A stretch of DNA of 64,000 nucleotides from Eledone cirrhosa (lineage: Eukaryota): NCBI GenBank assembly GCA_964016885.1, contig OZ024742.1:315270001-315334000 (forward strand), given 5' to 3'. The notes beneath the pieces are model-generated. The model was not told where the DNA came from. It saw only the letters and a program-made list of their open reading frames with translations, and did no database searches. Shown here in pieces: positions 39,692-43,200 of the stretch (its first letter is position 1; the number at the start of each line of letters is the position of its first letter). The translations under genes and the position numbers were made by a program.

Positions 39692-40935
39692 TGATAATAA
39701 TAGAGCTGCGGCGTTGCAAATGGGTTACATATGAAAAAGTAAGTCCTTCATCAGTGGCCTTCCAACCGTCCTAGGCATTTCATCGCTTTAAAGGCCATAT
39801 ACCTCAGGTTGGTGCGAACAACGGCTAAAAAAGTCGTTGGGACACGTAAATAAGGGGGACGCTAGGGTGAACAAACAAAATGGTTTAAGCAACAGAAAGT
39901 GACAAGAAAGAGACAAGTCCCAGATTTCTATGAATATAAACTCGGTGAAATCGTGAACGAGAGAATAAAGACCATCAAACCTGGTTGAAATGTGAGCAAG
40001 GAAGGAATTTCGCACAGGTCTAACGGGGGGAAGAAGGGGTCTGGTCTGCGAATTCGGTAAACATAAGTTCTGTGAAGTCGCAGACGAGAGAGAGAGAGAG
40101 AGAGAGAGAGAGAGAGAAAAAAAAAATTCATACCGGCTTGGCCAAGAACGCGCGAGAAAAGAATTCGGACAGGTCAAACGGGAAGAAAGAGGAGAAGGAG
40201 GAGAGGTAGTGACAGAGAATGAGTGAGTGAAAGTTGAGGAAGAGGCTAACAGAGAGAGAGAGACTGCTAGAAAGGGTAAAGATACAAAGAATGAAACAGA
40301 CGGGTGGCAGCAGAGGAAAAAATATATGTGTAAATATGATAATAATGGAGCTGCGGCGTTGCAAATGGGTTACATATGAAAAAGTAAGTCCTTCATCAGT
40401 GGCCTTCCAACCGTCCTAGGCATTTCATCGCTTTAAAGGCCATATACCTCAGGTTGGTGCGAACAACGGCTAAAAAAAGTCGTTGGGACACGTAAGTAAA
40501 GGGGACGCTAGGGTGAACAAACAAAATGGTTTAAGCAACAGAAAGTGAGAAGAAAGAGACAAGTCCCAGATTTCTATGAATATAAACTCGGTGAAATCGT
40601 GAACGAGAGAATAAAGACCATCAAACCTGGTTGAAATGTGAGCAAGGAAGGAATTTCGCACAGGTCTAACGGGGGGAAGAAGGGGTCTGGTCTGCGAATT
40701 CGGTAAACATAAGTTCTGTGAAGTCGCAGACGAGAGAGAGAGAGAGAGAGAGAGAGAGAGAGAGAGAGAGAGAGAGAGAGAGAGAGAGAGAAAAAAATTC
40801 ATACCGGCTTGGCTAAGTGCCCGCGAGAAAAGGATTGTGGACAGGTCAAACGGGAAGAAAGGGGAGGAGGAGAGGTAGTGACAGAGAGTGAGTGAGTGAA
40901 AGGTGAGGAAGAGGCTAACAGAGAGAGACTGCTAT
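39692..40935 (-). mobile_element. 645-bp tandem repeat (about 1.9 copies) carrying a permuted hammerhead-like motif
   Basis: Duplicated blocks offset by 645 bp (39748 vs 40393); abuts (TA)n; homologous to 42545-43200. Confidence 0.8.
39742..39843 (-). ncRNA. candidate permuted hammerhead / K-turn RNA (copy A1; A2 at about 40387-40490)
   Basis: Minus: ccaacc-tga-ggta-TA-tggcctt-taaagcgat-GAAA-tgcc-tag-ga-c-ggttgg-aaggcca-CTGATGA-aggac. Confidence 0.6.
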
Positions 40936-42222
40936 ATATAAATTTAGCGAGAATCGCATTTCGGCGGGTAGAAAAAGCGAAACGTAACGCAAATTCCGAG
41001 TCATGCTGGCAAGCGCTCCTTGGGCTAAAAGACCAGAGCAATAAACATAGGTTATAAAGGCCATACAAACTGGATGCGCTGTGTGTATTTTAGCGCGTGA
41101 GTGTGTTTTTCTTTGTGGTAGAAATCGCTTATTCTCATCACGAATAATATTGTCAAGTGGTTATTGTTATCGAAATTATAAAGACGATTGGCATATTACT
41201 TTATGTTATCGTACGCTTATAGTTATCTGCAAAGGTCCGTTCCAAAATAGACACAATGTATACTAAGAAGCTTTGTAAATTATGTATGGATGGTCCCGTA
41301 ACTTCTGGGAGAGTCGTAGATACTTTAAGCCTGGCGGAGCCCATCCCTCTCCAGGCCTGTAAAATATACAGAAAACTTAATTTTAAACTAAAACCAACTT
41401 GCCAAAGAAAGTTTCCTGCAACATAACATTCACTAAGAGAATGGATTAACAGTTATGAGAATGTGTTATGCTAGTTAAGTTTTACGAGTGTCTGTCGTCT
41501 GCGTTATTCAAATATTGCAGACGAAGAAAATTTCCCTAGTCGCTGCTTTGTTTATTATTTTTATTAATTTCTCTATATGTGTTTTCTGCTTTTATATGTA
41601 TATATCATTTAAGGGGCATATACATTTCAAATCTCAAATATATAGTTGTGTGAGTGTGTACGTCCGTTTGAGTGCATATGAATGTTTCCTGTTACAGTTG
41701 TGTATATTTGCATTTGTGTGTACGTGAAAGAAAGATTTATTTTTACCGGGCGTTCATGAAATACGAAACTATGTAATAGGTAGGAAAAGCAACTGACTAT
41801 AAGAAATAACTTTACAAAATAAGAAAAATATATTCGATGATTTTTGTCTTTTTTATAGCTTCTATTTTCTCATCTTTTGCTTTCCCTAAACTCCAGCAAT
41901 TCTGTTTAACATCTCTCTCTCTCTATCTATCTATCGCTCTCGCTCTCTCGCTCTCTCTCTCTCTCTCTCTCTCTCTCTCTCTTTCTCCCTCTTTCTCCCT
42001 CTCATCTCTCTCTCTCCCCCTTTCTCTCTCTCTCTTTCTCTCTCTCTCCCTCTCTCTCTCTCTCTCTCTCTCTCTCTTCTCTCTCTAGATATAAGAGGAT
42101 CAGGATAGAGAACGTGATATATATATATATATATATATATATATATATATATATATAAATATATATATATATATATATATATATATATATATATATATAT
42201 ATATATATATATATATATATAT

Positions 42223-42410
42223 AGGAAAAAGTATGACCCCGACGGCAGAGCTCAAGCCATTTCGACGGCTATTTCTGGACTCGTCGAAACAGCTTGAGCT
42301 CTGCCGTCGGGGTCATACTTTTTTCCTATTACCCACTCTACTACACTAAGTATTGAGTACTCTGGTGCGTTATGGTCCATCTGGTTCCTTACCACAATTC
42401 CTTCGTTATA
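42223..42410 (+). mobile_element. PLE tail family Y, fold-back
   Basis: Inverted repeat 42221-42330 pivoting inside a half-HHR (cgtc-GAAA); in (TA)n. Confidence 0.7.
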
Positions 42411-42544
42411 TATATATGTATATTTATATATATATATATATATAGAGAGAGAGAGAGAGAGAGCGAGAGAGAGAGAGAGAGTGAGAGAGAGAGAGAGAGA
42501 GAGAGAGAGAGAGAGAGAGAGAGAGAGAGAGAGAGAGAGAGAGA

Positions 42545-43200
42545 GGTATATGATTTTTAATGCGATGAAATACCAATGATGGTTGGAAAATCACTGACGA
42601 AGGACTATTTTTATCATATGTAACCCATGTGCAACCACGCAGTATTCTTCTTTCTTCTCATGTTTCTTATATATATTTACCTCGGCTGCGTTTGTCTGTT
42701 TCTCTCTTACTGCTTCCCCGTTCTCTCTGTTTCTCTCACCTTCTTTCGCCCCCTCTGTCAGTTACACTTTCTCTCGACTGACCGCTTCCTCGCACTTCCA
42801 CTCACTCACTCTCTGTATCTCCCCTTCTCACTTCCTCCCGTTTGGATTACAGTGGGTCTCTTCTTGCTTACATCTCACTCACGTCGGACGGTCTGTACCT
42901 TTCGCTCATGAAATCTACCCAGATTATGCTGACCGGAGAACCATGTTGCTTGTTTGTTTCCTATCTTTGGTTTGCTTTTATCCTTCTATGTTGTTTACTT
43001 GTCCCCCTCGCTTTACGCGATTTACTGGTCCCAATAACTTTTTTTAGTTATTACTCGCACCAACCTGAGGTATATGATTTTTAATGCGATGAAATACCAA
43101 TGATGGTTGGAAAATCACTTACGAGGGACTATTTTTATCATATGTAACCCATGTGCAACCACGCAGTATTCTTCTTTCTTCTCATGTTTCTTATATATAT
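42545..43200 (+). mobile_element. 524-bp tandem repeat (about 1.25 copies), homologue of 39692-40935
   Basis: Block 42543-42675 is repeated at 43068-43200; ends in (TA)n. Confidence 0.8.
43028..43130 (+). ncRNA. candidate permuted hammerhead / K-turn RNA (copy B2; B1 at 42545-42606)
   Basis: ccaacc-tga-ggta-TA-tgatttt-taatgcgat-GAAA-tacc-aat-ga-t-ggttgg-aaaatca-CTKACGA-Rggac (core CTGACGA in B1, CTTACGA in B2). Confidence 0.6.

Follow-up and report, generated by a model that had tools for sequence, protein, structure and literature searches.

The stretch analysed here (the window) is 64,000 nucleotides of the forward strand of Eledone cirrhosa contig OZ024742.1 (GCA_964016885.1), positions 315,270,001 to 315,334,000. 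It holds a Hydra-type Penelope-like element and two short non-coding arrays, A and B, on opposite strands (Table 1). The arrays sit in microsatellite-rich DNA.

Table 1. Features of the window, numbered from its first letter
Feature	Position	Strand	Remarks
Hydra-type Penelope-like element with pseudo-LTRs	29830..33700	+	open 713-aa RT + GIY-YIG frame, 30474-32615
(TA)n target at array A 3' end	39669..39692	.	sequence
Array A	39692..40933	-	partial unit, full 645-nt unit, 3' piece; non-coding
Motif A2, intact SGC-order hammerhead	39743..39844	-	predicted cut 39798/39797
A monomer, predicted cut to predicted cut	39798..40442	-	645 nt, GC 44%
Motif A1, intact SGC-order hammerhead	40388..40490	-	predicted cut 40443/40442
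(GA)n run adjoining array B 5' end	42444..42545	.	sequence
Array B	42543..43192	+	8 nt, full 524-nt unit, 3' piece; non-coding
Motif B1, 5'-truncated	42543..42605	+	S, G and C blocks kept; predicted cut 42550/42551
B monomer, predicted cut to predicted cut	42551..43074	+	524 nt, GC 43%
Motif B2, full length, T at core G5 (43120)	43027..43129	+	likely inactive; predicted cut 43074/43075
(TA)n target at array B 3' end	43192..43212	.	sequence

Two arrays of one non-coding family

A reading of the window made from its letters alone (the sequence-only reading) had described head-to-tail repeats with periods of 645 and 524 bp, and we confirmed both arrays as members of one dispersed non-coding family. 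Followed on the minus strand from about 40933 to 39692, array A consists of a partial unit of about 490 nt, the full unit, and a 3' piece, about 105-120 nt long, with (TA)n directly after it; the 3' piece of array B is about 120-130 nt long and is followed by (TA)n at about 43192, so that both arrays finish in (TA)n as had been read. The absence of a credible open reading frame also held up, the longest ATG-initiated frame in doubled units being 67 aa for A and 94 aa for B, and three long stop-to-stop frames over the arrays having no match in Pfam. An alignment of A with B gives identity at 87 of 113 columns for the motif and at 47 of 64 for the tail; elsewhere 260 of 492 columns agree. Identity thus does peak at the motif, as the sequence-only reading had it, but local alignment extends the homology several hundred bases beyond. 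The two A units differ at 11 places within one 150-nt stretch, and the A units are a mosaic. In pseudoknot-free folding as a circle, the A monomer reaches -119.6 against -99.0 +/- 5.2 for 25 shuffles (46% paired), and the B monomer -79.9 against -80.4 +/- 4.8 (39% paired).

Because both A motifs are intact, a minus-strand transcript would be predicted to cleave and yield a 645-nt monomer. The corresponding release of a monomer from array B, which had also been proposed, is probably not possible for this copy. Motif B1 lacks hairpin H and the upstream strands of helices Pa, Pb and Pc (the fold is described below), and motif B2 has a T for G5, a change found in 1 of 207 copies; mutation of G5 (mutant M1) inactivated SGC ribozymes (PMC10085705). 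For these reasons array B is probably, judging from its letters, a dead insertion that is unable to release a monomer. It does begin 8 nt before the predicted cut of B1, or 6 nt if the overlap with (GA)n is discounted, as had been reported, but this start is one of many 5' truncations and not the cut itself.

A hammerhead motif with its blocks in SGC order

Read in the sense of the element, the blocks run from the cleavage site to GAAA to CUGAnGA, which is type SGC, a non-circular permutation of the hammerhead. In the animal's own 3.0-Gb genome the SGC-order pattern has 14,200 exact matches against 3 for a reversed control, and so the motif is not a chance occurrence. Rfam gave no ribozyme match on arrays A and B at E values up to 1. 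Of 207 copies, 198 have CTGATGA or CTGACGA as the C block. Among the first 100 of 331 copies listed, position 17 is occupied by C, A or T and never by G. The core pair 10.1:11.1 forms a standard pair in 92 of the 99 unique copies, with four types represented (A-U, G-U, U-A and G-C).

The fold was aligned on 21 cluster representatives from the 99 unique full motifs, with six of the 27 clusters left out as broken, mis-parsed, near-duplicate or chance. We propose seven helices: stems I and III, a stem II of a single pair, a four-way junction made by Pa, hairpin H and Pb, and a helix Pc that would connect the upstream strand with stem I at its far side. In stem II only the core pair joins the G and C blocks directly, the remainder being the four-way junction with the upstream strands, and in this model the split stem II needs about 45 nt upstream of the cut. 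Across the 21 representatives 92.3% of 756 cells are paired, compared with 28-47% in slid controls, and 21 of 36 pairs show changes on both sides, a level reached by 0 of 500 shuffles, in which kinship is incompletely corrected. Double changes occur in six of the seven pairs of stem I, which is absent from every search pattern, in five of the six pairs of Pc, and in one of the five pairs of stem III, which is partly fixed by the search pattern. Three rows of the alignment, each one base short after the C block, break Pa.

An older family was recovered with a second pattern (278 matches, 21 in the control) and has different letters and the same topology. It is 85.6% paired, against 38-48% in slid controls; 10 pairs changed on both sides, with 48 of 500 shuffles as high and stem III fixed by the pattern, and the core pair of stem II is standard in only 10 of 15 rows. 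Single-strand folding, which misses pseudoknots, gave z scores of -0.4 and -0.5 for the A motifs and -3.25 for B2. Metagenome matches to the motif pattern were also considered and taken as chance: the pattern was too loose, with an S-like block upstream in 1 of 80 loci among the matches listed, and one further metagenome locus that fits the full-motif pattern has no likeness to the family.

Family size and insertion anatomy

Close copies of both A and B (97-99% identity) are spread over many contigs, and an anchor just past the cut has 11,953 matches in the genome, compared with 0 for its control. The repeats are also present in two sequencing runs, which bear on their existence and not on their expression. 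Tandem units are 445-679 nt long; arrays contain as many as five consecutive motifs, and the intervening sequence is non-coding. The claim that these units form a retrozyme family around a permuted ribozyme stands in part: the family is dispersed, high-copy, non-coding and tandem and carries an SGC motif, not a type I hammerhead, while self-cleavage, unit-length RNA and circles are predictions. The units had also been called longer than typical retrozymes, and they do exceed the 150-450 bp of one survey (Cervera and de la Pena 2020, PMC7229834), yet they fall inside the 51-972 bp of another (Li, Clavereau and Pollet 2026, 10.64898/2026.07.22.740005), so their length is unexceptional.

The fetched loci contained 208 elements, of which 8 touching a locus edge were set aside and 200 classed. 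Most of the classed elements (178/200) end in TA. At the 5' end, 94 of the 200 adjoin a microsatellite and 50 a self-inversion, and the remaining 56 meet other DNA. The median copy is 411 nt, most copies being shorter than one unit plus tail. Among 73 copies, 3' ends lie 58-72 nt past the cut in 16, 73-100 nt in 8, 101-135 nt in 35 and beyond 135 nt in 14, giving preferred clusters at 58-72 and 101-135 nt; this spread is fairer than the 3' ends of copies found with A and B as queries, which are biased by the queries. Insertion in the manner of Penelope-like elements, as had been suggested, agrees with these (TA)n ends, 5' truncations and inverted copies, which match the partial tandems, inverted 5'-truncated copies and microsatellite targets described for Penelope-like elements by Craig et al. 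2021 (PMC8557442). Units within one array are not clearly more alike than their nearest copies elsewhere, and neither these identities nor the mosaic A units lend support to rolling-circle copying of one molecule.

Ends of copies at the predicted cut

GG at -6/-5 is missing from 750 of the 11,953 copies, and more than nine in ten copies cross the predicted cut. Such read-through suggests that the usual template would be a circle or an uncut tandem RNA; slow or no cleavage would give it too.

For the cut-site test 64 of 99 matches were fetched, the other 35 (TGATC-type and other rows) being left out; 13 of the 64 rows were dropped as internal lesions, and five ends at +3 and two of a third subfamily fell outside both tests. 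In the TAG subfamily +1 is retained and the C at -1 is lost at 17 of 24 5' ends, where 5.5 would be expected for evenly spread junctions (P ~1e-6), and at 15 of 22 when two duplicate ends are removed. All 12 intact copies of this subfamily have C at -1. In the TGG subfamily 12 of 20 5' ends are at the cut, with 7.2 expected (P 0.026), and position -1 is C in 76 and A in 22 of 100 intact copies. An initial count of 15 of 29 (P ~4e-4) was overstated, since there were internal lesions among its rows and A stands at -1 in those 22 intact copies. The C at -1 in the tested subfamilies means that the upstream strand is not mimicked by the (TA)n target. Microhomology to TA at +1/+2 may inflate the excess in the TAG subfamily; the TAT match upstream of the cut, although longer, attracted only 2 ends. 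At two loci, L291 and L292, 3-4 extra bases stand precisely at the cut. We read the excess of 5' ends at this position as an indirect footprint of cleavage in vivo.

Candidate helper elements

The 713-aa frame of the Penelope-like element in the window carries RWR, DKT and CxCx5C motifs, which match the Hydra clade as described by Craig et al. 2021 (PMC8557442), and the element's family is a candidate helper. This frame (P0001) has 63 scored genome copies at 94-100% identity to it, many of them without stops, and other Penelope-like frames are also present in the genome. The window's element and the units have no real similarity, the only hits being matches of 22-27 nt (E ~0.03) and a retrozyme copy next to the element. 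Instead, the pseudo-LTR of the element carries a type I-like hammerhead core.

We found five independent head-to-head fusions that join a retrozyme copy to autonomous Penelope-like sequence with no (TA)n between them. In L095 the partner is the Hydra family of the window. The partner in L091/L092, L094 and L105 has a Cys linker and a weak GIY-YIG match, for which we use the label Neptune-like after the description in Craig et al. 2021 (PMC8557442), and in L049 it is an RT with DKG. These junctions fit two RNAs copied at one cut; nested insertion with a deletion of the target could also produce them. L091 and L092, with motif pairs about 2.9 kb apart, were considered as an autonomous carrier and rejected, being retrozyme pieces around an inverted Penelope-like element. 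Genome searches found no autonomous element bearing the SGC motif, and no sense RT frame runs into a motif in the loci examined.

Proposed mechanism and alternatives

We think it likely that A and B belong to a retroelement family that is non-coding and high in copy number and has a hammerhead motif in S-G-C order in each unit of 445-679 nt. Its RNA is predicted to self-cleave at one site in every unit and is likely copied into (TA)n by Penelope-like enzymes. A tandem transcript would be cut at each motif, a Penelope-like endonuclease would nick (TA)n, and priming of reverse transcription would take place within the RNA, at an AU stretch immediately after the ribozyme. In most templates the cut site would be joined, as a re-ligated circle or an uncut tandem RNA, and for this reason the enzyme would read through it; a minority would be cut linear RNAs, at whose end the enzyme would stop. 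For the joined template we prefer the re-ligated circle over uncut tandem RNA, at about an even chance.

The closest competitor shares most of this explanation and differs only in the RNA intermediate. It holds that an ordinary linear tandem RNA is mobilised, like a pseudo-LTR-derived SINE of Penelope-like elements, and that the ribozyme cuts with no circle formed or needed, and we regard it as a serious contender that falls a little short of even chances. Uncut tandem RNA would agree with the read-through seen in over nine-tenths of the copies; the mosaic A units and the lack of extra identity within arrays fit transcripts of mixed arrays; and of 9 Xenopus dimers assayed for cleavage, just 1 was reported to be cut (Li et al. 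2026, 10.64898/2026.07.22.740005). Against it, L291 and L292, with their extra bases right at the cut, suggest that ends were joined across it, and the type I retrozymes of coral, mussel and axolotl are reported to form circles (PMC7229834). Since the cut-to-cut junction is already present in genomic dimers, junction reads alone would be no proof of a circle.

We consider it unlikely that the fold is a conserved structure bound by the helper protein, or a decayed ribozyme, that no longer cuts. Its unusual stem II and the high read-through would be in keeping with such a structure, but subfamilies share the core bases, the exclusion of G at position 17 and the 10.1:11.1 pair, and the predicted cut has an excess of 5' ends. 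A stop of the enzyme at this point is not what structure alone would be expected to cause, since every pairing partner of the cut-site strands lies downstream and would be copied first.

Still less probable is that 5' truncation of a coding element has left the units behind merely as its detached 3' UTRs or pseudo-LTRs. This would explain why Naiad consensus ends share the architecture (see below) and why most copies are shorter than a unit plus tail, but arrays from dimers to five motifs have no reading frame between motifs, the sequence upstream of a motif is the previous unit and not an RT frame, no sense RT frame enters a motif in the loci examined, and two tight patterns derived from Naiads have no match. 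Local duplication, or satellite DNA with a chance hammerhead-like pattern, can practically be dismissed in spite of the microsatellite-rich surroundings and the lack of a ribozyme in Rfam searches of the arrays, given that copies of 97-99% identity number in the thousands and are scattered over many contigs, and given the excess of pattern matches over the control and the compensatory changes.

Relation to Naiads

Naiads were described as having no canonical hammerheads, with eight families flagged 'HHR_half_core', two of them from cephalopods (Craig et al. 2021, PMC8557442). We compared by eye the 3' ends of four cephalopod consensuses in the supplementary file of that paper. The ends of Naiad_Obim and Naiad_Ovul can be read as Pa, H with the same loop, Pb, Pc and the S-G-C core, their helices being complementary but made of different letters, and in these two octopus consensuses the fold lies about 85-90 nt before the end. 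Naiad_Esco has stems I, III and Pc in S-G-C order, and in Naiad_Adux, an incomplete consensus, nothing of the motif could be read. In the genome the two tight Naiad-derived patterns gave 0 matches, which does not amount to absence. No Naiad-like frame was present among the frames near motifs in the loci examined, and no Naiad ORF (N-terminal GIY-YIG, CxC, DKA, RT) was found in the units or upstream of motifs in those loci.

Given the shared architecture, we think it likely that a Naiad 3' end was the source of the ribozyme. We offer more tentatively, and at a little less than an even chance, the broader idea that the scrambled hammerhead is the ribozyme that Naiads seemed to lack, that the units are Naiad-derived circular parasites which have outlived their parent and now ride on Hydra- and Neptune-type enzymes, and that the pile-up of copy ends is a genomic record of a non-circularly permuted ribozyme cutting inside animal cells. 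This would offer an answer to why Naiads lack canonical hammerheads, a question left by Craig et al. 2021 (PMC8557442).

Comparison with known systems

With few exceptions, the non-circularly permuted hammerheads reported so far come from environmental RNA and DNA of uncertain source. Type-SGC RNAs that cleave were reported from metatranscriptomes by Eckert et al. 2023 (PMC10085705), whose account of non-circularly permuted types gives none from the genomes of known organisms except one bacterial type-GCS candidate. In the literature we searched, largely abstracts and few subscription papers, no SGC hammerhead is reported in an animal genome, a retrozyme or a Naiad. More than 14,000 copies in one animal genome would give permuted hammerheads a host and a job. 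The retrozyme surveys with which we compared, as far as their descriptions go, use type I or type III motifs only, so the SGC class would be missed and invertebrate retrozyme counts may be too low.

Like metazoan non-LTR retrozymes as they have been described, the family has non-coding head-to-tail units with one hammerhead each in thousands of copies, a GC content below 45%, no LTRs, and Penelope-like elements in the same genome. Unlike those retrozymes, whose hammerheads are of type I (C-G-S), the units here are S-G-C and the arrays have no Rfam hammerhead match; pseudoknot-free folding gives no compact circle for B, and cleavage and circles are predicted here.

With the type-SGC hammerheads in the published descriptions (HRIMA-1 and variants, PMC10085705) the motif shares its block order, its core bases, a linker of 3-4 nt from stem I to stem II, and an extra helix tying the far sides of stems I and II, to which Pc would be equivalent. 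It differs from them in its setting, which is an animal retroelement. Its stem II of one base pair and a four-way junction is a form that PMC10085705, in its account of the tested SGC ribozymes, does not describe, and a stem II split in this way would be a new way of building a hammerhead core.

The family resembles Naiads, as characterized in PMC8557442, in its preference for (TA)n, its partial tandems and its inverted 5'-truncated copies. Naiads encode EN-RT, whereas these units encode nothing, and their fusion partners here are Hydra-type and C-terminal-EN Penelope-like elements, not Naiads.

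Sequence at the retrozyme ends and predicted cut site

The 5' ends of the retrozyme, the non-coding tandem family that carries the hammerhead motif in S-G-C order (cleavage site, GAAA, CUGAnGA), are fused at two E. cirrhosa loci (L068 and L078) to a short, hairpin-forming, (TA)n-ended repeat that also occurs in the window (see table) and has very high depth among sequencing contigs. Two further loci, L291 and L292, hold elements that are continuous apart from four and three additional nucleotides, respectively, which sit precisely where the cut is predicted. These extra bases are possibly scars left by ligation or template jumping.

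Repeats in the window, with strand where assigned
Feature	Position	Strand	Basis
Tandem repeats, 316/319 bp, inverted arms, (TA)n ends	23564-24356; 33821-35095		sequence
Short hairpin-forming repeat, (TA)n ends	42224-42406; 35135-35320; 24995-25140		sequence
Fragments of other high-copy repeats, adjoining array A 5' end	40936-41072; 41324-41359		sequencing-contig depth
Hydra-type Penelope-like element, young, 713-aa frame open	29830-33700	+	frame; copies in own genome
Neptune-like Penelope element, 3' fragment	22350-23020	-	likeness to L091 element
LINE-like element, broken, endonuclease match PF03372 (E 7e-10)	57000-60700	-	Pfam match
Long purine-skewed minisatellites, periods 42/153 and 20/40/60 bp	17656-19969; 15856-17101		sequence

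Other hammerhead-like motifs

Several older families with the S-G-C motif and a different stem III (L361-L390) are present in the E. cirrhosa genome, where the pattern was matched 278 times versus 21 in the control, and the same seven-helix topology fits at least two of them. The 316/319-bp repeats, which match Rfam Hammerhead_HH9 weakly at 24025-24095 (E 0.095) and 23709-23779 (E 0.37), look like a second retrozyme family, of type I and with an altered core. A minimal type I hammerhead-like motif was also noted at ~22440-22475, within the Neptune-like fragment. Inside the pseudo-LTR of the Hydra-type element we found a type I-like hammerhead whose stem II base is a U-U pair and whose core reads CAGAAGA rather than CUGAnGA, and nearly all copies at 30 loci in the E. 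cirrhosa genome have both features in common.
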